The notes beneath the pieces are model-generated. The model was not told the origin of the DNA and searched no databases. It was given only the letters and a program-made list of their open reading frames with translations. From an uncultured Bacteroidales bacterium (GTDB lineage: Bacteria > Bacteroidota > Bacteroidia > Bacteroidales > Muribaculaceae), in assembly GCA_902768435.1 (NCBI GenBank), contig CACXLJ010000015.1, positions 4,253 to 68,252 of the forward strand: 64,000 nucleotides of DNA, in the 5' to 3' direction. Shown here in pieces: positions 18,301-34,726 of the stretch (its first letter is position 1; every line of letters starts with the position of its first letter). The position numbers and the translations under genes were made by a program.

Positions 18301-18955
18301 TGTGACCCGGTTCATCGACTATTGCGAACTGGGCGAGAATGAAAAGGGCTACAAAGATGAAGATGAGGGCGAAACCGAATCGGTCGAGAAGGATTCCTTG
18401 CCGCAGTATTATGTGAAATCGGCTCTGCCCATGCTCAAGGTGCGGCTGCCCAAGGACTCGACGGTGAAGCAGCGCGAGGGTATGCGGTTGCACTATGTGT
18501 TCAGTCTTATCAATTATCCTGGCGATGAGGAGTTTGCCTTGCGCTATGCGCAGAAGATGCATATCGTCGATGAGGACGATACCTGGACCACTGCCCGCTT
18601 GCAAGCGGTGTTCAGCAAGATGCTCAATGACGAGGTGATGAAGCAGTGGTTTGCGCCCGACAACAAGGTGCTCAACGAGCGCTCCATCATCACTGCCACC
18701 GAGCTGTCGTTTAATAAATACCGCCCCGACCGCGTGGTGATGCGCCCCGATGGCGAAGTCATCGTCGTTGACTACAAGTTCGGTTCCAACTACTCGCCAC
18801 GGGTGCAGGCCATCAACAGGGATCAGGTGGAGAACTATGTGAACCTGTTGCGCAACATGGGTTATGAGCGCGTCAAGGGTTACCTGTGGTATGTGCGTCT
18901 CGACCGCCTCGTTACGGTAGGCGGGCAAGGCCATCAATTCAGTCTACATTTCTAA
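15341..18955 (+). CDS. UvrD-type helicase/nuclease, AddA/RecB-like
   Basis: ASAGSGKT, AITFTNKA, MIDEFQDTS, GDEKQSIYRFR, MTIHAAKGLE, YVAFTRP; C-terminal nuclease RPDRVV...VVDYK. Start at 15341 overlaps the SUI1 stop (TAATG). Confidence 0.9.
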   Translation: MKDRMNNMNQNLTQHQNKGLQVIKASAGSGKTYTLAKLYIEQLLWRTDPETGATTLRTKEKNYHEHILAITFTNKATDEMKRRIVDELYKLWQGQSKYMKDFLARHQDSEQQIQEAAHKALKEVLFNYQNFHVSTIDSFFQTVLRTFAHELDCDYDYELQLDEKYAIGVAVRKFLMNLGKEKANEHISKWVKEFVKDDVVNNGEWNFFSGRVISNLKKLAEAMNMEAFVKCRTELLNYLQHSGPGLSPIQQFKQAVLNAAQRYKDAYAGKPGTGLSPDDFGNLLSRHSLDESNLASRSALRYLLTERDPEAELNKTLIGYTLDDIANPKKCFKGDVSPSACEAIIDFRDSVIQSLNCSKALNGLVNRIWQLGMLAKIDEQLENFRKDNNSLLISDTNELIATVLDSGVPFMYERMGTWLNHFMIDEFQDTSRKQYDNFTPLLDQSLGSGYSNLIIGDEKQSIYRFRNSDPDLLQYELKKKYGLHYDDSLALEVNYRSCENIVTFNNVFFEALIKAYVQSNARFEKLANTYSHLKQLYSGNYDKLGVKGYVRVNYVYDFKDGPKRLDADGNAMKSKDQILSQLPAYILNLHQQQQIGYEDMLVLVSTHSDGNAVVERLLEHNQTAEPGDVIDVVSGESLRLKNSPAVRLVVSVLRLIDATQYSRIEDDSDGVEKLSKEGSRLLDQRLSMQYQYRVLHDFVNAVSDQAAQPDCGDALAKCFEKCKHVRELSVNEQLESFANDLTDVLPQTNKELMSLVGVVEKIIDKYVLTQGRFSAKANGKETDESSFLMAFQDCVINFAQQAQSGGTVHEFLRYWDEQSDHLSVPSSESSKAVSIMTIHAAKGLERKCVIIPFACWDMVTFNKTEWVEKDVWMSNGDPVAGVGAGGNDAIVPPLIPVDGNFLKLFPQFEDHLATIMQDSLIDNINKTYVAFTRPRQHLHIFAIVYRKECDMPESAGDWLHKLMPSLDDVSTHYFEPDADVSISKDGDVTRFIDYCELGENEKGYKDEDEGETESVEKDSLPQYYVKSALPMLKVRLPKDSTVKQREGMRLHYVFSLINYPGDEEFALRYAQKMHIVDEDDTWTTARLQAVFSKMLNDEVMKQWFAPDNKVLNERSIITATELSFNKYRPDRVVMRPDGEVIVVDYKFGSNYSPRVQAINRDQVENYVNLLRNMGYERVKGYLWYVRLDRLVTVGGQGHQFSLHF

Positions 18956-18974
18956 TCATATTTATAAAAACACA

Positions 18975-19760
18975 ATGAAAAAGTTATTTAAACAATCTAT
19001 TTTTTTGCTGCTGGCGTTCGCATTGTTTGCGGTGCCTGCCATAGCCGCCGAGGGCGAACTTGATGCCTCGACACACATCAGGTTTGAGGTGATGAATCCC
19101 CAAAATGTGAAACCTGGCGAACTCGCTTTCATCTACATTATTTTGGATAACCCCAATGTGGAGTATGCTTCGATTCAAAGCGAATTTGCCTATCCTCAGG
19201 GCTGGACTGCTGAGAAATTCTCTCAGAAGGATGCCGGCATTGGCACAAAGCCCCTCAAGGCATATTGCCAGCTTATTCCCGAAGGCCGTCTCGATGAGTA
19301 CTATAACGAAGAGACCGAAGAAAGCTTTACTGCCTTCACAATCATTGGCAACAATCCTACCGAGAGCACATTCCGCTTTGCAATCTATGACAGCAACGCC
19401 GAAGGCAAGACGATTGCTGTGGGCAACGATGCCCTCGCGCTGTTTGCCGTCCGTGTTCCCGCCGATGCCACTCCCGGCAATTACACTATCAATGCTTATG
19501 ACATCTGGCTTGCTACGGGCGAGCCCAACAATGTGGGCGATGGTGGCATCGACCCGTTCACATTTACGGTCACGGTCAATGAATCGTTCATGCAAGGCGA
19601 TGTGAACGGCGACGGCGAGGTGGATGTGCGCGACATTACTGCCCTTATTGATGTGATCATGAACTCGATCACCGATAACCCCCGTGCCGATGTGAATGCC
19701 GACAAGGATATTGATGTGCGCGACATCACCGCCCTCATCGACATCATCATGAACAGCTGA
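18975..19760 (+). CDS. Secreted cohesin-like + C-terminal dockerin type I protein
   Basis: Signal peptide; beta-rich domain ('VKPGE..FIYIILDN...IQSEFAYPQG...FAVRVPADATPGNYTI'); two Ca-binding repeats GDVNGDGEVDVRDITALID / ADVNADKDIDVRDITALID. The dockerin call is secure; the cohesin call is by pattern only. Confidence 0.75.
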   Translation: MKKLFKQSIFLLLAFALFAVPAIAAEGELDASTHIRFEVMNPQNVKPGELAFIYIILDNPNVEYASIQSEFAYPQGWTAEKFSQKDAGIGTKPLKAYCQLIPEGRLDEYYNEETEESFTAFTIIGNNPTESTFRFAIYDSNAEGKTIAVGNDALALFAVRVPADATPGNYTINAYDIWLATGEPNNVGDGGIDPFTFTVTVNESFMQGDVNGDGEVDVRDITALIDVIMNSITDNPRADVNADKDIDVRDITALIDIIMNS

Positions 19761-19839
19761 TTCTCGGTAGAGCAGTAAACTAGTAGAATTGTAAAGTAGA
19801 TACTAGAAAAGCTGTGTAACTATTGAATCAATACACTCT

Positions 19840-19887
19840 GTAGGGTCGCCACCTGTGGCGACCGAATGATGCCATTCATGGCGACCG
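19840..19887 (+). repeat. REP-like palindrome (GTAG type)
   Basis: gtagggtcgccac-ct-gtggcgacc, with a second tggcgaccg at 19879-19887. Confidence 0.55.
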
Positions 19888-19922
19888 CAACTGCAAAATA
19901 CAATTTTTCACCATTCAATACC

Positions 19923-19958
19923 CAGAGGGGCGGTATCACTTGCCGCCCCTCTGCTTTT
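19923..19958 (+). terminator. Intrinsic terminator
   Basis: cagaggggcgg-tatcacttg-ccgcccctctg followed by ctttt. Confidence 0.75.
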
Positions 19959-20133
19959 ATGCCTAAAGGTCAATTTGCAGGTAATCTCTTGAACCAGAAA
20001 GGAGTTATCTCCCCATGGTAGGGGCGTTTGGTGGCTTATTCCATTTTTAATATGCAAAAAAGTGACTTATTCCATTTTAGGATTTTGTGGATATTTTTTC
20101 TTGCAAGAATTTCATAATTTCAGAAAAAAGTAG

Positions 20134-20141
20134 TAAATTTG
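20134..20141 (+). promoter_or_regulatory. Bacteroidota -7 promoter element for the island operon
   Basis: TAAATTTG, about 330 nt upstream of the first CDS. Confidence 0.55.
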
Positions 20142-20471
20142 CAATGTGAGAAAATAGATTTTTGCCTCTTATCAGTCATGGTCTATCACTCACAGCCCAC
20201 GTCGAAGTGTCGCAACCATTTGTAGGGTCGCGTGAAGACCGAGGGTGGGAAAGACATATAAAATAAGGCGTTTTCTGAACGCTTTGGTTTTGACCGTATA
20301 AGAATCTCGCAAGTTCTTTTATAGTGAAAGTCAAAAACAAAGCAACGAGAACGCCCCGTAGGGTGATAATTTTCCCCTCTTGACCATCAAGGGGTGAGTT
20401 ATATATCATCGACGTGGGGCTTTCAGCGTTGCTCGTTCTAACTTTCCGGGCAATGCGAGAGCCTTTATACG

Positions 20472-21158
20472 GTGGAACCGAGCAGCAAGAATCGGCTCCA
20501 TGTTGACATTGTTATGTGCATTGATTGCACTGGGAGTATGGGAGGTCTTCTTGACACTGTAAAAACAAATGCCTTAAAGTTTTATCCAGACCTTAAAGAA
20601 AGGTGTGATGCTAAAGGCAAGGAAATATCAGAATTGCGTATTCGAGTAATTGGGTTCCGCGATTTCTACGCTGATGAATCGGATGCAATTCAGGATTCTG
20701 GGTTTTTCAGAATTCCAGACCAGGAGTCTGAGTTTAAAAATTTTGTAAATGGTCTGTCGCCTATGGGTGGTGGTGACGAGCCGGAGAATGGGTTAGAGGC
20801 ATTGGCAATGGCCATTAATTCAGACTGGACAAAAGGAGGAGACAAGAGAAGGCATGTAGTTGTCGTCTGGTCAGACGCATCAACTCATCCAGTTGGATTG
20901 GACAAGTGTAAAAATGAGTATTACCCTCAAGACATGCCTAACAGTTTTGATGAACTTACTGACTGGTGGGACAATGATCAATCTGGAAAAATGAATAAAT
21001 CGGCTAAGAGGTTGGTGATTTTTGCTCCAGATGCAAGTGCGTGGTCTGAAATAGGTATTAATTGGAATAATACTATTCATCATCCTGCAAAAGCTGGGCA
21101 AGGTCTAGAAGAGGTCGATTATGAAACGATTATGTCAACTATTGTCAATTCTATATAA
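20472..21158 (+). CDS. von Willebrand factor A (vWA) domain protein
   Basis: VDIVMCIDCTGSM MIDAS-like motif; RIRVIGFRD; GGGDEPE; VVVWSDA. GTG start, no in-frame ATG upstream before a stop at 20439. Confidence 0.85.
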   Translation: MEPSSKNRLHVDIVMCIDCTGSMGGLLDTVKTNALKFYPDLKERCDAKGKEISELRIRVIGFRDFYADESDAIQDSGFFRIPDQESEFKNFVNGLSPMGGGDEPENGLEALAMAINSDWTKGGDKRRHVVVVWSDASTHPVGLDKCKNEYYPQDMPNSFDELTDWWDNDQSGKMNKSAKRLVIFAPDASAWSEIGINWNNTIHHPAKAGQGLEEVDYETIMSTIVNSI

Positions 21159-22194
21159 GAAACTTTTTAAAAATAGGAATTGCAAGGTGGAAAACGAACC
21201 GATTAGCTTTTCTTTTATGACAGAGAAGAAGCCTGGATTTGGTGAAGATGCAGACCCCATTCGTTTAATTTTAACAATAGAAAAGGCTTATGCCGTTGGA
21301 GTTTTTGACGGAATGGGAGGTGCAGGCTCGGCTATCTGTGATTCTTCTTATGGAGAACATTCGAAAGCTTATGTTGCTTCAAGGACGGTACAATCTTCAT
21401 TGATGGAATATCTTAATAATCATCTTCCTACTAACGATGTTTCCGAAGAAGATATGAAGACTGTTATTGAAAACGGACTAAGCAAAGAGAAAAAGTCACA
21501 TCCTCCTAAAGTTGAAACGGCTTTGCGAAGTAAACTTGTTCGCGATTATCCAACGACTATGGCAATGGTCGTTCTTCATGTACAAGATGAAAAATATCAA
21601 GTGGATAGTTACTGGGCCGGTGATTCACGCTGTTATCTTTGGACAAAAGACAAGTTCTTCCAAATCAGCAAAGATGATTTAGAAGAGTCAAATGATCCGA
21701 TGGAGAATCTCAACAACGATTCACCCTTATCTAACTGCGTATGTTTGGATCGGGATTTCACGATTCGTCATAAATGTATACCATTAGAAGGGAAAGAGCC
21801 TGTTGTTATTTTGAGTGCTACGGACGGATGTTTTGGCTACTATCCAACACCGATGCATTTTGAATATGTCTTGAAAAACTGTCTGATAGATGCAAAAGAC
21901 GCAACAGACTGGGGTGATAAAGTGAAAGAGTGCATTACAAAGGTAGCGGGAGACGACACATCTTTGTCTTTGATCGCATTGGGTTTTGCTTCTTTTGATG
22001 ACTTGAAACAAAATTTTAGCGAGATTTCCGATACAATTAACAAGATGATTGATGCTCAAAAAGCAATGGAAGGTGCTCGTGAAGAGTTGAACCGATCTTC
22101 ATGCGTTTATGAGCAGTCAAAAAAAGATAGTTGGGAGATTTATAAACGAGATTACATGAAATACATTAGCGACGTAAATAATGGCACTACTTAA
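21121..22194 (+). CDS. PP2C/SpoIIE-like Ser/Thr protein phosphatase
   Basis: GVFDGMGG, PTTMA, WAGDSRCY, ATDG, GDDTS. True start may be GTG 21187 or ATG 21217. Confidence 0.85.
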   Translation: MKRLCQLLSILYKKLFKNRNCKVENEPISFSFMTEKKPGFGEDADPIRLILTIEKAYAVGVFDGMGGAGSAICDSSYGEHSKAYVASRTVQSSLMEYLNNHLPTNDVSEEDMKTVIENGLSKEKKSHPPKVETALRSKLVRDYPTTMAMVVLHVQDEKYQVDSYWAGDSRCYLWTKDKFFQISKDDLEESNDPMENLNNDSPLSNCVCLDRDFTIRHKCIPLEGKEPVVILSATDGCFGYYPTPMHFEYVLKNCLIDAKDATDWGDKVKECITKVAGDDTSLSLIALGFASFDDLKQNFSEISDTINKMIDAQKAMEGAREELNRSSCVYEQSKKDSWEIYKRDYMKYISDVNNGTT

Positions 22195-23233
22195 AGGAGA
22201 GGTAATAAACGGCTACACAATATTGCAAGACTTCATTGTGGCCGGTGGCATGAGTAAGATTTCATTTGCAGAAAAGAGTGGCAAGGAATATTTCATTAAA
22301 GAATTCCTGTCACCCAAGTATCCTTTGCCCGATAGTCCAGGCAGTGAGAAGATGAAAGCCCAAAGGCGTGTGGCATGTGAAGCCTTTGAAAAACATCATC
22401 GAGAACTTAACAAAAAGATAAGCACAAAAGTATCACTTGGCGGTAATCTTGTTTTTGCAATAGACTTTTTCCGCTCTGGTACTTGTTATTACAAGGTGAC
22501 AGAGAAGATTGATACAGCATCTCTATCATGTGAAGAAATATCTAAACTACCACCTGATAAAATTCTTATCATTGCAAAGTCGGTTTGTCATAGCGTTCGC
22601 ATCCTTCATGATTTAAATATCGTTCATGGTGATTTGAAACCGGATAACATTCTTATTAAGAAAACAACTACTGGATACTCCGGAAAATTAATTGATTTTG
22701 ATGATAGTTATTTTAGTGGCAATCCCTCAGAAGACCGAGAAAGCCTTGTTGGCACTCCAGAATATTACTCGCCAGAGCAGGCCGCTTATGTCATGGATGA
22801 AGACGAGGAGATATCTGGTTCTACATTGACATTGAAATCTGACATCTTTACTCTTGGCATCATCCTGTGTGAATATTTCACAGGAAAAAAACCCATTTTA
22901 CCGTCTGATTGTAGCAACACTTGGATATGTGTTGAAAGCGGCAAATCTTTTTCGTATGCAAAAACCTTACCGGAATGCATTAAGGATTTAATTGGTTGTA
23001 TGCTAAGAAGGAGTCCCAACGAGCGACCGACTATAAATGAGGTGTTTGAGAAACTCAAGGGGTTTAAGGACAGTGATTTTTTGCTTGTTCATGAAGACAA
23101 ACATATTGCTGGCACTATTAAGGATGGCTCCGTGGATAAGCCCAAACTTCGTAGTACTTATAAGAAGAAAGTTGAAGAGAAAACTCAAAAAGGAAAACTG
23201 AGAAGCAAGACATGGAAAATGAAGACAGACTAA
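22181..23233 (+). CDS. Hanks-type Ser/Thr protein kinase
   Basis: GGMSKI, FIKEF, HGDLKPDN, LIDFD, GTPEYYSPE, SDIFTLG; 14-nt overlap with the phosphatase gene. Confidence 0.92.
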   Translation: MALLKGEVINGYTILQDFIVAGGMSKISFAEKSGKEYFIKEFLSPKYPLPDSPGSEKMKAQRRVACEAFEKHHRELNKKISTKVSLGGNLVFAIDFFRSGTCYYKVTEKIDTASLSCEEISKLPPDKILIIAKSVCHSVRILHDLNIVHGDLKPDNILIKKTTTGYSGKLIDFDDSYFSGNPSEDRESLVGTPEYYSPEQAAYVMDEDEEISGSTLTLKSDIFTLGIILCEYFTGKKPILPSDCSNTWICVESGKSFSYAKTLPECIKDLIGCMLRRSPNERPTINEVFEKLKGFKDSDFLLVHEDKHIAGTIKDGSVDKPKLRSTYKKKVEEKTQKGKLRSKTWKMKTD

Positions 23234-23323
23234 TAGACTTGCAATATGATTTTCATCTAAGACACCGATAGTGAGACTAAGGGAATCTAGATTGATATTT
23301 ATTAGATTATTTAGAACGAATTT

Positions 23324-24103
23324 ATGATAGGCGGCATAATTGGAGATATTGTAGGCAGTATATACGAAGATGGGAATATGAAGAGTAAAGATTTCCCTCT
23401 TTGGGGTGAAGGCTGTCATTTCACTGATGACACGGTTTTAACTGTGGCAACCGCCGATTGTATCCTTAAAGGCGGTAGATTTGAAGACTATTATTATTCT
23501 TATACAAGTCAATTCCCCTCATGCGGATATGGTACTAATTTTATGAAATGGTACTTCACTCGAAAATTTAGAAATCAGTTTGTGCCTTATCAAAGTTTCG
23601 GAAATGGCTCCGCCATGAGGGTTGGACCAGTTGGTTGGGGTTATGAAAGAATGACAGATGTTTTAGATAAGAGTCGGGATTCTGCAATATGTACACACAA
23701 TCATGAAGAGGGCGTACGAGGAGCTCAAGCTATTGCAACTTGTGTTTTTCTTGCAAGAAAAAATGAATCTAAAGGGCATATAAAGAGATTTGTCGAGGAG
23801 AAGTTCAGTTATAATCTTGATTGTTCCCTTGAAGATGGCCAAAAGAATCATAAATGGAATGCCACTAGCATGCAAACTGTTCCACAGGCAATTACGGCAT
23901 TCTTGGAGAGTGACAATTACGAAGACTGCGTAAGAAATGCCATTGCAATAGGTGGGGATTCAGACACACTTGCTTGTATGGCGGGTTCTATTGCGGAGGC
24001 GTATTATGGTGTGCCTTCTGAATTGCGTGAAAAGGCATACACATACCTCCCAGAGAAAATTATTGAAGTTATTGAAAAGTTTGAGTTTAGATTTGGGAAA
24101 TAA
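23324..24103 (+). CDS. ADP-ribosylglycohydrolase (DraG/ARH family)
   Basis: GDIVG, TDDT, GNGSAMR, THNH, GGDSDT motifs all present. Confidence 0.92.
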   Translation: MIGGIIGDIVGSIYEDGNMKSKDFPLWGEGCHFTDDTVLTVATADCILKGGRFEDYYYSYTSQFPSCGYGTNFMKWYFTRKFRNQFVPYQSFGNGSAMRVGPVGWGYERMTDVLDKSRDSAICTHNHEEGVRGAQAIATCVFLARKNESKGHIKRFVEEKFSYNLDCSLEDGQKNHKWNATSMQTVPQAITAFLESDNYEDCVRNAIAIGGDSDTLACMAGSIAEAYYGVPSELREKAYTYLPEKIIEVIEKFEFRFGK

Positions 24104-24117
24104 TTCTAATATTATAT

Positions 24118-25227
24118 ATGAGCTGGATTTGCCATAGGTGTGAAACAGAAAACCCTGACTCTGTAGATGTTTGTGAGGTTTGTGACGCTCAAGCTCCACG
24201 AATCAATAGTTTTATTTATGATAGAGTAATCAATGATGATTCTACTGTTATACGATGGAATGCTGAGTGTTGCGATAGAGTCGTGATAGTTTATAGAGAA
24301 AAACAGTATGATGTTACGGATATGAATTCCTATAAACTGGAGATAGAATCATTTGAAGATGAGGCTGTACAATTCCTGCTTTCGAGTGATGTGACAGATG
24401 ATAGGAGATTCAGTTTTGTTATGCATCTTTTCCGTGCTCCAATTATAGAGTTCAGTGCGGATAAACTAAAATTAAAAAGAGGCGAACAAACAAGTATAGT
24501 GTTATCTTGGAGAATTTATAATGCGAGTAGCTCAGTTTTAAGGTCTTTGAATGAGACCATAAGAATAAGTGATCATGGGACTAAAACTGTGTTTCACGAT
24601 ACTGCGTGTGAATATACTATAGAAGCTACTGCGTTAGATGGTGAGACATTGTTTTCAAAGCAGGTTAGTATAAAGGTGTTTGATGAGTGTGAGATTGAGT
24701 TTGAAGCGGAAAAGTATTTTGTTTTCCCTTCTGTTCCAGTCAAGTTGTCGTGGAATGTGAAACATGCTAAAAAGGTGTGGCTTGATTCGGCCGAGGTGAA
24801 AACGAAAGGTTCGAAAACAGTTAAACCGGTCAAGAATTCAACCTACACCATCAAGGCTGAAGATGAATTTGGGATTAAAGAAGAACAAATTGAAATTCAG
24901 ATGCTTCCAATCCCACAAGTCAAAAGCATACTAGTGCCGACACCAACTATAACCAACAATATGGCTATCAATGTAAAGCAGCCACGATATAATGTAAATG
25001 TCAAATTCCCCAAGATTAATATGCCGCTTGTTGATACAGAGGTTCCTCATGTGCCCAAGTTCCCGGAAATGGGTTTGGGCGTTGACATAGAACCTCCACA
25101 GGTCGCCTCGCTGACTGATTTGGGGCTTAATGTTGAGCTATCTCCACCATTACCCAGGTTTAGTCTGAAGGAGTCAATAAAAAAAGTATTTAATCACATA
25201 AAAAATAAAGACAATGAAAAACATTAA
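24118..25227 (+). CDS. RanBP2-type zinc finger + Ig/PKD-like repeats + Pro-rich tail
   Basis: W-I-C-HR-C-ETE-N-PDSVDV-C-EV-C matches WxCx2Cx3Nx6Cx2C; repeated 'IEF.A......V.LSW...YTI.A' modules. Confidence 0.7.
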   Translation: MSWICHRCETENPDSVDVCEVCDAQAPRINSFIYDRVINDDSTVIRWNAECCDRVVIVYREKQYDVTDMNSYKLEIESFEDEAVQFLLSSDVTDDRRFSFVMHLFRAPIIEFSADKLKLKRGEQTSIVLSWRIYNASSSVLRSLNETIRISDHGTKTVFHDTACEYTIEATALDGETLFSKQVSIKVFDECEIEFEAEKYFVFPSVPVKLSWNVKHAKKVWLDSAEVKTKGSKTVKPVKNSTYTIKAEDEFGIKEEQIEIQMLPIPQVKSILVPTPTITNNMAINVKQPRYNVNVKFPKINMPLVDTEVPHVPKFPEMGLGVDIEPPQVASLTDLGLNVELSPPLPRFSLKESIKKVFNHIKNKDNEKH

Positions 25228-26467
25228 TAGAAATGTTGCCGATAACGAAGAAACAATCGTGAAGTCGGGTGGTCACATCAATGAATTCTTGTGGCTTTGT
25301 GCTGGGGTGAACCGAAGAGTGCTTCGTCAATGTCCGACCGATTATGCAAAATATGCTGGAATAGGAGGTACCATACTTTTCACTGCACTGATGGCCATAT
25401 TATCTGGTGGTTATGCGTTTTATACCATATTCAACAACCAATTGACAGCCGTGTTTTTTGGCATTTTTTGGGGGCTCTTGATTTTTAATCTCGATCGATT
25501 TATGGTGAACACTATGTATTCAGATGGTACACATAAAATTACCAAAGATGAGCTAAAAGGAGGTATTCCGAGAATTATATTAGCAATTTTTCTTGGCATA
25601 GTCATATCTACTCCTATTGAAATGAGAATCTTTAAAGATAAGATACAAACACAATTGATGATTGAGCAAGGGAAAACTGAGAAAAAAATTGATGCCGAGT
25701 ATCGTGATTTGACAAGAGAAATAAATGAATTATCTCGTGAGAAGAATCATAATGATTCACTTTTACGTGTTAAACAGGACCAATTAGTTGCTATTTCAGA
25801 TTCTTTACAAGCGGAGTATAATGGACGTAGAACCTCTGGGCAACGAGGAAATGGAATAATTTATAAAGAGCTTGAGAAGAAAAAGAAAGAATTAGAGCGT
25901 CAAGTAGGTAATCTAGAAAAAGAAACTAAGCAAAAGAATGATGCCATTGATATAAGGTTGAATCCGAAAATAAAAGAACAGAATAATTATGAGAAACAAA
26001 AACACAAGGCACTGCAATCGGAAAGAGGATTTACTGCAGAGTTGAGGGCTTTATACGAGCTGACATCTCCGAAAGAATCTTTAATTCTTTTCATTTCAAG
26101 AATGATGATAATGTTGCTTTTCATTACTATTGAAGTTATTCCAACATTCTTTAAGATGATGATTGCATCGGGGCCATACGATGATTTGTTGAGGGCGGAG
26201 ATGCATAAAGCCAGGGTGTTGGCCGACAAGCGGATTTCTGATTTGAACGATGAGGTTAATACGCAGGTTCAAATTTCAACTGCTAAGAATAAAGAACGGC
26301 TTGAGACTGAGGTGACAGCCAATAAGGAATTGATGAAGAAACTTGCCAAGACTCAAGCTGAATTGTTGCAAAACGCTATTGACAAGTGGAAAGAGGATGA
26401 AATGACAAAAATAGCTCAAGACCCGTCGCTTTATATCAAAGGAAATCATCAACCTGACGATAATTAA
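25214..26467 (+). CDS. DUF4407-like membrane protein with coiled coil
   Basis: 'FLWLCAGVN...KYAGIGG...WGLLIFNLDRF...PRIILA...ISTPIEMRIF'; long coiled coil; 14-nt overlap with the upstream gene. Confidence 0.8.
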   Translation: MKNINRNVADNEETIVKSGGHINEFLWLCAGVNRRVLRQCPTDYAKYAGIGGTILFTALMAILSGGYAFYTIFNNQLTAVFFGIFWGLLIFNLDRFMVNTMYSDGTHKITKDELKGGIPRIILAIFLGIVISTPIEMRIFKDKIQTQLMIEQGKTEKKIDAEYRDLTREINELSREKNHNDSLLRVKQDQLVAISDSLQAEYNGRRTSGQRGNGIIYKELEKKKKELERQVGNLEKETKQKNDAIDIRLNPKIKEQNNYEKQKHKALQSERGFTAELRALYELTSPKESLILFISRMMIMLLFITIEVIPTFFKMMIASGPYDDLLRAEMHKARVLADKRISDLNDEVNTQVQISTAKNKERLETEVTANKELMKKLAKTQAELLQNAIDKWKEDEMTKIAQDPSLYIKGNHQPDDN

Positions 26468-26469
26468 TC

Positions 26470-26631
26470 ATGAAAATACCAGGACTAACATTTTCATGGA
26501 AACGGGCCTTAGGCATTACGCAGGCGAGACAACGGCTTGCACGCAAAATAGGTGTACCTACATCTAAAGCAGGCTTGGAGCGCAAAATTGGCAATAAGAT
26601 TATTTCTGTGTTTTTTGGTAAGAAAAAGTAA
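26470..26631 (+). CDS. Small basic hypothetical protein, 53 aa (not in the ORF track)
   Basis: MKIPGLTFSWKRALGITQARQRLARKIGVPTSKAGLERKIGNKIISVFFGKKK fills the gap between two operon genes exactly. Confidence 0.75.
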   Translation: MKIPGLTFSWKRALGITQARQRLARKIGVPTSKAGLERKIGNKIISVFFGKKK

Positions 26632-26643
26632 GATTTATATACA

Positions 26644-26946
26644 ATGAAGCCTATAATTAAACTTGTTGTCGCTGTTTTGCTGCTGGTGTGTTTGGCTGAT
26701 ATGCCGTATGGTTTCTATCAGCTAGTGCGTTTTGCCGCGACCGCTGCCTTTGTTTATTTATCTTACGATTACTTTAAGTCAAATCAAGATGTGAAAGGCG
26801 TAATCTTTGCACTTCTTGCAGTCCTGTTCCAGCCGTTCTTCAAGATTGCTCTAGGGAGAACTCTCTGGAATGCTATCGACATCATTGTTGCCGCTGGTCT
26901 ATTTTATCTTATCATAACAAGTTTCAATAAGAAGCATAAAGCATAG
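26644..26946 (+). CDS. DUF6804-like small membrane protein
   Basis: 'CLADMPYGFYQLVRF...LFQPFFKIALGR..WN.ID'. Confidence 0.75.
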   Translation: MKPIIKLVVAVLLLVCLADMPYGFYQLVRFAATAAFVYLSYDYFKSNQDVKGVIFALLAVLFQPFFKIALGRTLWNAIDIIVAAGLFYLIITSFNKKHKA

Positions 26947-31607: not shown

Positions 31608-33320
31608 ATGAAGCGTGATCGTGTCATATTGCTCTTGTTCTTCGCCGCCCTGCTTGTGGGTTGTGGGGACAGCCACGATGCGCGTGTTACCGCCGAGCTT
31701 GACTGTGCCGACTCGCTGCTGCGCACCAGTGACACCGCTGCCCACAGCGCCGCCCTGCGACAGATGCTCGCACTCGACACCGCCCGCGCCCTGCAGGCCG
31801 ACGAAGCCCTGCGCGCCCGCCATGCCCTGCTGCTCGTCCAGGCACGATACAAGTGCTATGTGACCGAGCCGGCCGACAGCGCCCTCATCGACAGCGCCCT
31901 TAGTTATTATACCGACCATCATGGCTCTTCTGCCGACCACGAGCGCTACACCCGCGCCCTTATCTACAGCGGTGCCGTAGCCGAAGAACTCGGCCACCCC
32001 CAGCAGGCTATGCAGCACTACCTCGAGGCCGAGTCCACCGCTGACCCCAACGACCACCACAATATGGGTCACTCTAAATTTCTGATAGCTAACATATATC
32101 AAAGAAATTACACATCCGTTCCAATAGTCATCAACAAATATAAAGAAGCTCTTTCCCACTATCTCTTAACAGATGAAACAAAATTTCAGGTTGTATGTTA
32201 TCGAGAAATAGGTGCTTTATATAGAGCTTTTAATACAGATAGTGCTCTAATTTATCTTGATAAGTCAATTTCACTTGCCTCGAAACTAGAAGATACAAAC
32301 TATGTTTTTTCATCTCAAATGATGTTGGCAAGACTCTTGTATGAACAAGGAAGTTATCAAAATTCAAAAAATTTAGCTGTCAATATTATAAATAACGCAA
32401 AAAGTGACTTTAGGGAAACTCAGCAGTTTTATATTGCAGCTGACTCTTACATTAAGTTGGGAATGCTAGATTCAGCACAGTTCATTATCAACAATACACC
32501 GACTCCAGAAAGAGCTGAAGACAGTATGAGAATGTCTCGTACACTATCAGAATTACATAAATCCAGAAACAATTATAAGGCTTATTCAAATGAGCTACTT
32601 GTAGGTAATCAAATAGCGGATTCTATTCTTATACATGCTTCTGAAGTCAATTTGCCAGAAGAGGAGAGGGCGTTCAAATCAAGCAAGCAGCATAATGAGC
32701 TGGTTTCATCTCATATTAGAAGAGTTTTCATATTGGCATTTTTAATTCTTGCACTTATTATCATAATTATAGTATATAGGAAAAAGCACAAACATGCTAA
32801 GTGCAAGATGTCTTTGATGGCTGAACAGCTTCAGCAAGCTATTAACCAGTTGAATGTGACAACACAGCTTCAACAAACTAATGACATGTCAAAAGAAGAG
32901 TCCATGTCAAAACTGATAGCATCTACCGAATCACAGATCCATATCACACAAAGCATATTAGAGAAATTGGCATCGCAGAGAAGAGGCAAAGATTCTGAAC
33001 TTATCGCCCACCTTGCAGGCATTGTGTCAATCAATAGTAACGACAACTCTTTCTGGAAAAGCCTCAAAATATATCTTGATGTCAAATACAACAATATCAT
33101 TACATATTTGCAAGATACTTATCCTGCCATCAACACATCTTGCATACGCTTCATTTGTTTGTGTTTTGCAGGTTTTTCCAATACAGCAATAGCTTATTGT
33201 GCAAATGTCACTAGCACTCACACGATCACAAATAAGAAGCGCACAATTCCAGTTGAATTTATGGGACTTGATATGAATCTGAATGAGGTAAAGAAAAGGT
33301 ATTTGAATGGTGCACTTTAA
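31608..33320 (+). CDS. Lipoprotein-signal TPR sensor with a TM helix and C-terminal LuxR-like HTH (one-component regulator)
   Basis: Lipobox LVGC; TPR-like helices; TM 'VFILAFLILALIIIIIVY'; C-terminal 'FICLCFAGFSNTAIA....TITNKKRTI'. Confidence 0.7.
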   Translation: MKRDRVILLLFFAALLVGCGDSHDARVTAELDCADSLLRTSDTAAHSAALRQMLALDTARALQADEALRARHALLLVQARYKCYVTEPADSALIDSALSYYTDHHGSSADHERYTRALIYSGAVAEELGHPQQAMQHYLEAESTADPNDHHNMGHSKFLIANIYQRNYTSVPIVINKYKEALSHYLLTDETKFQVVCYREIGALYRAFNTDSALIYLDKSISLASKLEDTNYVFSSQMMLARLLYEQGSYQNSKNLAVNIINNAKSDFRETQQFYIAADSYIKLGMLDSAQFIINNTPTPERAEDSMRMSRTLSELHKSRNNYKAYSNELLVGNQIADSILIHASEVNLPEEERAFKSSKQHNELVSSHIRRVFILAFLILALIIIIIVYRKKHKHAKCKMSLMAEQLQQAINQLNVTTQLQQTNDMSKEESMSKLIASTESQIHITQSILEKLASQRRGKDSELIAHLAGIVSINSNDNSFWKSLKIYLDVKYNNIITYLQDTYPAINTSCIRFICLCFAGFSNTAIAYCANVTSTHTITNKKRTIPVEFMGLDMNLNEVKKRYLNGAL

Positions 33321-33530
33321 ACCAAAATTTGTGTTTTCTTCTAAACAAGGTTTTGCCCTGAAATGTTAAAGGACTTTTTAACATTTCGTTATTTATAGTA
33401 ATCTCCCATTTATTTCTTTGGCAATCAACTAAATATAATCCAACAACCAATGGCGTAAATAGGATTATCATTTTTATTGTCAAAACTAGTGGTATCATTA
33501 ACTTTGCAACACAACCAAAACCAGAAAATT

Positions 33531-33731
33531 ATGAGAAGTTTTTTTCCAATCTTTTTGTTTTTATTCGCTGCAGTTTCTGCAAATCCCATTGTTTTATCAC
33601 CCGCACAAGAGCAAGTCGATTTACGACAAATTGGCCAAACAATCCCTCATATTGAGGTGAATCCTCCAGCCGATATGCCCGATGTGTACTACAACAGCGA
33701 ACTGGATGTGATCAATCGATGTATGTTATAG
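33531..33731 (+). pseudogene. 5' fragment of a small secreted protein gene
   Basis: Signal peptide MRSFFPIFLFLFAAVSA, own TAACTTTG element at 33499-33506; ends abruptly at ...LDVINRCML. Confidence 0.45.
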
Positions 33732-33916
33732 CGACAAGCCTTACGGCGGGCAATCATGTTGATGCCAACCGAACAAGCGGTGATTTCATCATACCATCAG
33801 CTAAACAATTTGAAGTTGAATACAGCGACAAGGTGGTGCTGGCACCAGGTTTCAAGGTCAATAAAGGAGGTATTTTTAAGGCCAGATTGGGTGCATCAAC
33901 CTATAAAAATCGGTAA
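33719..33916 (+). pseudogene. 3' fragment resembling the C-terminal domain of a large secreted protein (peptidase-like)
   Basis: 'YVIATSLTAGNHVD..RTSGDF....VVLAPGFKVNKGGIF' resembles a C-terminal beta domain; no signal peptide or catalytic part. Confidence 0.4.
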
Positions 33917-33973
33917 TTATTCTTTTAATTTGAGTTTATTTTTTAATTTTGCAATAACTAAACAATTATAACA

Positions 33974-34726
33974 ATGAAAAGTTTATTTTTTTCAATTACG
34001 TTAGCTCTGGCATGCTGGAGCAACATGATGATGGCAGAAATCCATGAACACGAGTATGTCCCCCTGCTCGAAGATGGTCGCCAATGGATATATTCATTTG
34101 AAGAAGGCATTTGGCTGGGTGAAGAATTAACAACAAGAATAGGGTTTTATAAACTTTATCTTCAAGGTGATACAGTAATAGATGGGAAAAAGCACTTAAA
34201 ATGCTACTATAAGTCTCTTTCTTCAAATAGTTATGGCTGGGCAAATGAAGACTATCCAATTGCCTATATGAGAGAGGAAGGGAAATTGATTTTCGCTGTA
34301 GATAATGAAAATAATGGCTTTTACGATGAACCCCTCTACGGAGGACCTGAAGGTTGTATTTATAATTTTGAGGACATGAGTAATGTTGAGGAAGAATTTA
34401 AGGATATTATCGATGTCTTCATAGCGGGAAAATGGAGAAGAGTCTTTAAATGGTATTATAATACTGATATTATTGAAGGCATAGGCGCTGATGGTTTTGG
34501 TGATTTGCTCTATCCTGTTCAACATGGTACAACATGCTCACATTGTGACTATAAAGACGATGATGGTCTGGTGATGATGCTGGACAAGGATGGCAATATT
34601 TTATACAAGGGTTCAGCCTATGTCAAATATCTTGAGACAAAACCCGCTGGCGACGTGAACGGTGACGGCAAGGTGAATGTCTCTGATGTCGCTGTTCTCG
34701 TCAACCTCATCCTCGGCATCAAGTAA
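33974..34726 (+). CDS. Secreted protein with a single C-terminal dockerin-type repeat
   Basis: Signal peptide; 'YVPLLEDGRQW'; ends GDVNGDGKVNVSDVAVLVNLILGIK. Confidence 0.75.
   Translation: MKSLFFSITLALACWSNMMMAEIHEHEYVPLLEDGRQWIYSFEEGIWLGEELTTRIGFYKLYLQGDTVIDGKKHLKCYYKSLSSNSYGWANEDYPIAYMREEGKLIFAVDNENNGFYDEPLYGGPEGCIYNFEDMSNVEEEFKDIIDVFIAGKWRRVFKWYYNTDIIEGIGADGFGDLLYPVQHGTTCSHCDYKDDDGLVMMLDKDGNILYKGSAYVKYLETKPAGDVNGDGKVNVSDVAVLVNLILGIK

Follow-up and report, generated by a model that had tools for sequence, protein, structure and literature searches.

The attenuators and riboswitch platforms, among them the trp- and pyr-type leaders, the T-box and the metabolite riboswitches, are promoter-proximal leaders that act in cis on a promoterless cargo, and the 5' half of their terminator can pair upstream instead, which gives two conserved folds that are mutually exclusive. 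The RNA leader described here is built in the same way. The differences are that the leader family has no known ligand or protein, no leader peptide and no match in Rfam 15, that its putative sensor is a rod of about 200 nt and not a multi-helix junction, that it serves dozens of unrelated accessory operons, and that the copy in our window has no U-tract. The c4 leaders of phages P1 and P7 and the CI leader of satellite P4 are also similar in some respects: short internal complementary segments can mask sequences downstream, the genes are mobile or accessory, and a 10-nt pairing between the 5' part and a distal segment covaries in the copies that have it. The original prediction had drawn a loose analogy to the c4 type of antisense leader, but neither sequence nor model matches, Rfam had no family for it at E <= 10, not even C4, there is no sign of a processed trans-acting piece of RNA, and the core of the family is a rod with a terminator. 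The OLE, ROOL and GOLLD RNAs and the raiA motif are likewise large and strongly covarying, their function is unknown, and they are often found with mobile or accessory DNA. In contrast to these, the present family is clearly a cis leader at a fixed distance from the gene with a built-in terminator switch, its structure is a simple rod, and within the data searched it occurs only in Bacteroidales.

The window is a stretch of 64,000 nt from the genome of an uncultured bacterium of the Muribaculaceae, and the region of interest is at 20134-20504. This region is a real structured RNA on the plus strand. It encodes one copy of a multicopy family of cis-acting leader RNAs of Bacteroidales, a family that is widespread in the gut and rumen members of the order and apparently undescribed, and that probably determines if the operons behind it are expressed. 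For the whole of this reading, with a leader that gates its cargo and a window copy that is a derived variant, we estimate the probability at roughly 0.6. The original prediction, made from the sequence of this single locus, was of a long 5' leader that is structured, has competing folds and is transcribed from the box TAAATTTG; this is supported by the comparison with its homologues, and the cis-leader RNA with a terminator/antiterminator design, as far as we can see not described before, is real.

About 100 homologous copies were gathered, from the same genus, Prevotella, Segatella, Bacteroides, Parabacteroides, Muribaculaceae and other Bacteroidales. In a DNA search, 45 of 133 genomes of the same genus matched window positions 20196-20504 at 70-84% identity, six matches being the maximum for one genome. 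In species-representative genomes, about 85 additional copies of full length turned up when these were scanned with the near-invariant 16-mer ACGCTTTGGTTTTGAC and a profile of the core was then run with nhmmer, and the carriers include Prevotella, Segatella copri, Prevotellamassilia, Alloprevotella, Bacteroides, Parabacteroides, Muribaculaceae, Odoribacter, Tidjanibacter and Paludibacteraceae. When the whole order was searched, exact matches to the 16-mer were present in only 6 of 401 evenly drawn genomes, and with 1 mismatch allowed a reversed-pattern control matched at a comparable rate. The element was seen on 12 of the 46 IMG/VR contigs bearing the 16-mer, and there was no match to the leader among the GenBank phages or the PLSDB plasmids. 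The window's own genome has a second, diverged but canonical copy at about 66,300-66,650 of another contig (C13); it has both a U-tract and a small hairpin with a GGAGCC loop, and is situated upstream of an N6/N4 DNA methylase gene. Five full-length copies were observed on contigs of "cleanbin" bins from one study, which carry the Firmicutes labels Clostridiaceae, Oscillospiraceae, Lachnospiraceae, Clostridium and Acutalibacteraceae. These are probably mis-binned Bacteroidales DNA and not cases of transfer.

The Rfam search that the original prediction proposed as a check gave no match to any Rfam 15 model: there was none for the whole window at the gathering thresholds, and for 18500-21500 at E <= 10 only matches at chance level, with 14-21 bits, to models of eukaryotic snoRNAs and miRNAs. 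A search for tRNA and tmRNA found none, and nothing relevant turned up in the literature with keywords or with words of conserved sequence. The sequence GGUGGAACCG at 20471-20480 resembles what we take to be the T-box core, but a T-box riboswitch was rejected because no T-box model matched at E <= 10 and the CCG part of the sequence is unconserved in the family. An open reading frame on the minus strand, 20176-20409 (77 aa), was rejected as a gene; it has no Pfam match and spans the indel-rich tip of the rod, and the pairing is specific to the plus strand.

The pairing is extensive. RNAalifold with 27 copies gave a rod of 46 nested long-range pairs, 23 of them with compensatory changes. In the pair-count test 97.2% of the cells were paired, as compared to 38-44% when the partners were slid, and the covariation score was 0.403 against 0.158 in shuffles, none of 500 shuffles being as good. 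In the alignment of 97 copies the five helices P1 to P5 are 94-99% canonical, and all four Watson-Crick pair types are seen at several positions of upper P1 and P3. Conserved pairing in homologues, on which the original prediction had staked itself, is thus present and covarying.

The rod can be followed from its base. The 5' strand of P1, 20281-20301, pairs with 20465-20483 and is 98.7% canonical in the 97 copies, with 277 double-change cells; its basal part GCUUUGGUUUUGAC is nearly invariant, while the upper part, 20295-20301, is hypervariable. P2 is formed by UCUCGCA at 20305-20311 and UGCGAGA at 20454-20460 (94% canonical, compensatory changes in 6 of 7 pairs), and P3 by 20326-20331 and 20441-20446 (96% canonical, compensatory in 5 of 6 pairs). 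Then follows a conserved A-rich internal loop, CAAAAACAA at 20332-20340, which together with its flanks (20330-20343) is complementary to the 5' strand of P1. The 5' strands of P4 (AGCAAC, plus GA) and P5 (GCCCC) lie within 20341-20357 and pair with 20423-20433 and 20416-20420, at 97.5% and 96.6% canonical, the core of P4 being 20341-20346 with 20428-20433 and P5 being 20353-20357 with 20416-20420. The apical part, 20358-20415, ends in a tip hairpin at 20374-20394, which the alignments show to be variable, with different length and sequence in different copies. The 3' strands of P5, P4, P3, P2 and P1 come in that order in conserved block B, 20416-20483, as seen both with RNAalifold and in the pair counts.

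All the motifs of the original prediction were found when the sequence was read and scanned for repeats. The box TAAATTTG is at 20134-20141 and the GTG at 20472, with 330 nt between them; the inverted repeat CCCACGTCGA at 20196-20205 and TCGACGTGGG at 20409-20418 is perfect, 10 of 10; AACGAGAACGC at 20344-20354 and GCGTTGCTCGTT at 20426-20437 are both there, as is the hairpin at 20374-20394, which contains a 2-nt bulge; and GTAGGGT occurs at 20222 and 20358, the second of which is not conserved among the homologues. The 347 nt folds far better than dinucleotide shuffles on both strands, with z-scores of -5.85 for the plus and -6.19 for the minus strand. As to the structure itself, the prediction was right that the window copy has competing folds, but it missed the dominant conserved helices of the rod, such as 20281-20301 with 20465-20483. 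The register given for its competing stem was also off, 90% canonical and with 0 compensatory pairs, whereas the neighbouring register, AGCAAC with GUUGCU and GCCCC with GGGGC, has compensatory support.

It can be asked if the element works as DNA, either as an attC-like site for cassette exchange or as an invertible promoter segment between the 10-bp inverted repeats. The module is conserved while the cargo next to it is interchangeable, it borders an island of low GC, the perfect 10-bp repeat flanks 203 bp, and invertible promoters are common in Bacteroidales. The pairing is strand-specific, 97.2% canonical on the plus strand with 12% G-U pairs included as compared to 86.1% for the same columns on the minus strand, where the G-U pairs become A-C mismatches, and this implies an RNA from the plus strand and not a DNA cruciform. 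Moreover, the repeat is missing in about 80% of the copies, there is no TAnnTTTG between its arms in the window copy, the conserved box being upstream of the element, and no recombinase domain was found when most of the ORFs downstream of the element in the island (20472-26946) were scanned with Pfam. The conserved promoter and terminator also fit an RNA. An invertible promoter of the Bacteroidales type was rejected on these grounds, and a function at the DNA level altogether is very improbable.

The pairing of the 10-nt inverted repeat is found in about 18 of 100 copies, and there the arms covary (GUCGA:UCGAC, GCCGA:UCGGC and GCUGA:UCAGC). The repeat is outside the core of the family. The left arm, CCCACGUCGA at 20196-20205, is the 5' strand of a hairpin P0 (CCCAC...GUGGG, 20196-20250), which was seen in the fold, the repeat scan and the alignment, and at the site of which there is a second sequence class, UCAUUGACGG...CCGUCAAUGA. 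The right arm is mostly held in the apical rod, and since it overlaps the 3' strand of P5 the repeat competes with the rod. For the window copy, 20148-20512, the calculated energies are -122.3 kcal/mol for the repeat fold, -118.4 for the rod, -116.8 for the rod with the terminator hairpin and -123.8 for the unconstrained minimum free energy (MFE) fold. A c4 or P4-CI kind of antisense leader was rejected: the 10-nt repeat is the only repeated complementarity, it lies inside the rod and not at the start codon, and it is absent in some 80% of the copies.

The leader seems to be transcribed from a promoter of its own. The box at 20134-20141 is an exact Bacteroidetes-type -7 element, TAnnTTTG, on the plus strand, and transcription would begin at about 20148. 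Of 99 copies, 94 have an exact TAnnTTTG upstream; when a shorter stretch was taken, the motif was observed in 60 of 97 copies, against 3.4 in mononucleotide shuffles. The distance from the box to GCUUUGG falls into two classes, 70-89 nt (60 copies) and 120-150 nt (20 copies), and the window copy with its 139 nt is of the long class. Leaders of this class have a 5'-terminal hairpin, in the window GUGAG...CUCAC at 20145-20194 in the MFE fold, and the alignment has hairpins of different sequence at the same place in others of the class (GUAGAG/CUCUAC, GUGAAGACAACC/GGUUGUUUCAC). Closer to the rod there is a small hairpin, GCGUU-loop-AACGC at 20268-20282, three G-C pairs of which are invariant in 97 copies, with GCGUA/UACGC variants in the alignment. 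In the window, two 17-nt direct repeats, GTGGCTTATTCCATTTT at 20031-20047 and GTGACTTATTCCATTTT at 20062-20078, are located 31 nt apart; they precede the promoter box by 55-110 nt and may be where a regulator binds.

At the other end of the rod is a hairpin of terminator type, 20471-20502, which is 86.7% canonical and has some compensatory pairs. Its 5' half, 20472-20483, is common to P1, and the base of the rod, which would allow read-through, and the terminator, which would stop transcription, are therefore mutually exclusive. The basal part of P1 is rich in invariant U-G pairs (20284:20480, 20290:20475 and 20291:20474), as expected if the same Gs must pair with C in the terminator. When either the full P1 or the terminator was forced, nearest-neighbour model estimates differed by a median of 0.0 kcal/mol, or -0.1 with the upper rod kept. 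Of the features of an intrinsic-terminator attenuator, the promoter-proximal cis leader and the helix that sequesters a strand of the terminator (P1, 20472-20483) are both present; the G+C-rich hairpin followed by a U-tract is present in the family, with 6 or more U among the 9 nt that follow the stem in 91 of 97 copies, while the window copy has 4 U and then coding sequence.

There is also a third, all-local fold, in which GCUUUGGUUUUGAC pairs with GUCAAAAACAAAGC, block B forms a hairpin and the terminator is closed. It is a median of 7.2 kcal/mol less stable than the rod, and its stem, 20281-20294 with 20330-20343, is 91.5% canonical and nearly invariant. As the local stems hardly vary, covariation neither supports nor refutes this fold, but it is conceivable that it matters during transcription, when the strands that emerge first could pair. 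No conserved small ORF is evident in the leader, and none of the known aptamer models in Rfam matches it. Further on, 40-49 nt after the terminator, 46 copies have a small hairpin, the stem of which is variable and covaries; its conserved loop reads GGAGCC, GGAGUC, GUAGCC or GAAGUC. The 3' strand of the terminator has the complement of this loop: CUCC where the loop has GGAG (43 copies), CUUC where it has GAAG (5 copies). It appears that the loop changes along with that strand, which is suggestive only, as loops with GUAGCC agree with neither pattern and the copies are related to one another.

This hairpin raises another question, if the rod is a processing or stability element, cut by a double-strand-specific nuclease or protecting the 5' end, that sets the half-life or the translation of the mRNA. 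The rod is long and nearly perfect with about 45 conserved pairs, the conserved hairpin after the terminator would fit such a role, and in the window copy the rod is intact though the U-tract is gone. Against this, the U-tract is kept in 91 of 97 copies and the terminator and P1 are in balanced competition, and a nuclease site is not readable from sequence. We regard processing as an unlikely main function of the rod.

A regulatory role for the leader is instead suggested by its position. Its orientation is always that of the cargo gene, and the genes differ between copies. The start codon of the cargo is at +60 to +85 in most copies, and only 5 of 97 have a promoter box between the terminator and the gene. 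Among the first genes after 64 of the copies are those for BrxP/BREX proteins, SNF2 plus PLD helicase-nucleases, restriction-modification (RM) enzymes of type I, IIG and III, DUF4007, FHA proteins, a subtilase, a glycosyltransferase and six BspA-type LRR proteins. Within the genus, N6 and N4 methylases, vWA proteins, a protein kinase and an FHA-trypsin protein were found, and on the IMG/VR contigs a cluster of SNF2, DUF4391, methylase and Res genes as well as radical SAM enzymes. No pattern was seen among the upstream neighbours of the leaders. The leader had been thought to belong to a toxic kinase operon, which turned out to be too narrow: the varied cargo, dozens of unrelated operons, means that it is a portable module for accessory operons, mostly defence and surface genes in the copies examined, and not a feature of the kinase island.

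The same observations bear on the idea that the transcript of about 300 nt from promoter to terminator is a stand-alone RNA, one that binds protein, acts as a sponge or is a component of a defence cassette, with read-through being incidental. Each copy has its own promoter, 91 of 97 have a good terminator, the nearly invariant sequences of the internal loops would fit a binding surface, and there are several copies per genome. A free RNA does not explain why the cargo begins at a fixed distance and in a constant orientation, why a separate cargo promoter is found in almost no copies, or why a conserved alternative helix, equal in energy, shares sequence with the terminator, and the cargo is too diverse for a common protein partner encoded nearby. 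An independent RNA thus seems improbable to us, about as much as a processing element.

A cis-acting leader with a switch fits better, and for the family we infer transcript ends, termination and read-through as follows. Each copy would be transcribed from its own TAnnTTTG promoter, and the leader RNA folds into the rod of about 200 nt with its five nested helices, P1 to P5. The base of the rod and the terminator are of about equal energy and exclude one another, one meaning read-through and the other a stop, and the conserved local hairpins add a third fold, in which, for the long-leader class, the 5' end pairs with 20409-20418. The cargo is promoterless, normally begins about 70 nt downstream, and is behind the choice between rod and terminator, which implies that it would be expressed only when the base helix wins. 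The leader would then function as an on/off gate, and the balance may be tipped by a factor, a ligand or an effect of transcription speed.

The window copy departs from this scheme. Upstream of the leader are genes for an AddA-like helicase-nuclease and a dockerin-domain protein, and the latter gene ends in a strong intrinsic terminator at 19923-19953, a 13-bp stem followed by CTTTTAT, so the leader transcript starts afresh. Between the upstream gene and the leader, directly after the gene, REP-like palindromic units were observed at 19840-19890 (GTAGGGTCGCCAC..GTGGCGACC, then TGGCGACCG again), with short matches at well over a dozen places on several contigs of the window's own genome. Downstream of the leader, the genes encode a vWA protein, a PP2C phosphatase, a Ser/Thr kinase, an ADP-ribosylglycohydrolase, a protein without assigned function and a DUF4407 protein. 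This kinase operon is in an island of 38-40% GC, as compared to about 52% in the surrounding DNA. A synteny search with the upstream gene for the borders of the island matched only a C-terminal domain repeat. A second stretch of low GC, 35-36% against about 52%, was seen at 32000-34000, which suggests another inserted island.

The vWA gene, 20472-21158 on the plus strand, matches Pfam VWA_4, and its GTG and first 10 codons are leader sequence. The homology to the leader family ends at 20504 and that to vWA proteins begins at about 20502. Three other genomes of the genus code for relatives of the vWA protein, which are fusion proteins of 621-783 aa and align from VDVVMCID (position 20502) onward; the window protein, at 228 aa, matches only their C-terminal vWA part. 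The gene looks like a domain that has been cut out and put behind the leader. It appears that a rearrangement fused the leader module to the vWA gene in this copy by joining the terminator hairpin to the first strand of the vWA domain, and that the U-tract and the downstream hairpin were thereby removed. The copy is indeed without the usual U-tract, spacer and small downstream hairpin, and has 4 U in the 9 nt behind the stem.

The fusion would also have placed the only usable start codon, the GTG at 20472, inside the switch helices. This codon, like the first 10 codons as a whole, is part of both P1 and the terminator hairpin, and the probability of the GUG being unpaired is 0.02-0.15 in the predicted ensemble. 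With the start codon in these helices and the U-tract gone, control of the window copy, if any remains, would more likely be exerted by masking of the start codon than by termination. The mechanism of the family may not operate at all with a terminator that lacks the U-tract, and the leader could be a constitutive relic here. It could also be that translation starts at the ATG at 20513 and not at the GTG.

A tentative idea, possible but rather doubtful at this point, is that the leader is a common sensor module, a riboswitch or a gate dependent on a factor or on transcription speed, which gut Bacteroidales place ahead of exchangeable cassettes for anti-phage defence and surface variation, and through which one cellular signal, for instance infection stress or a change in the nucleotide pool, turns on an otherwise silent repertoire of accessory defence genes. 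If confirmed, the leaders would be a large and abundant class of regulatory RNA in dominant gut bacteria of humans and ruminants, heading restriction-modification, BREX, helicase-nuclease, kinase/vWA and BspA-type surface operons. Some carriers, among them Segatella copri and species of Bacteroides, can be cultivated, which makes the family open to direct tests. The leader would offer a way to study how defence cassettes that are costly or toxic are silenced and later turned on, and the fused copy in the window may be an example of a module that has been rewired from control of termination to masking of the start codon. The arrangement suggests that newly arrived cassettes gain regulation by landing behind a ready-made module of promoter and leader.
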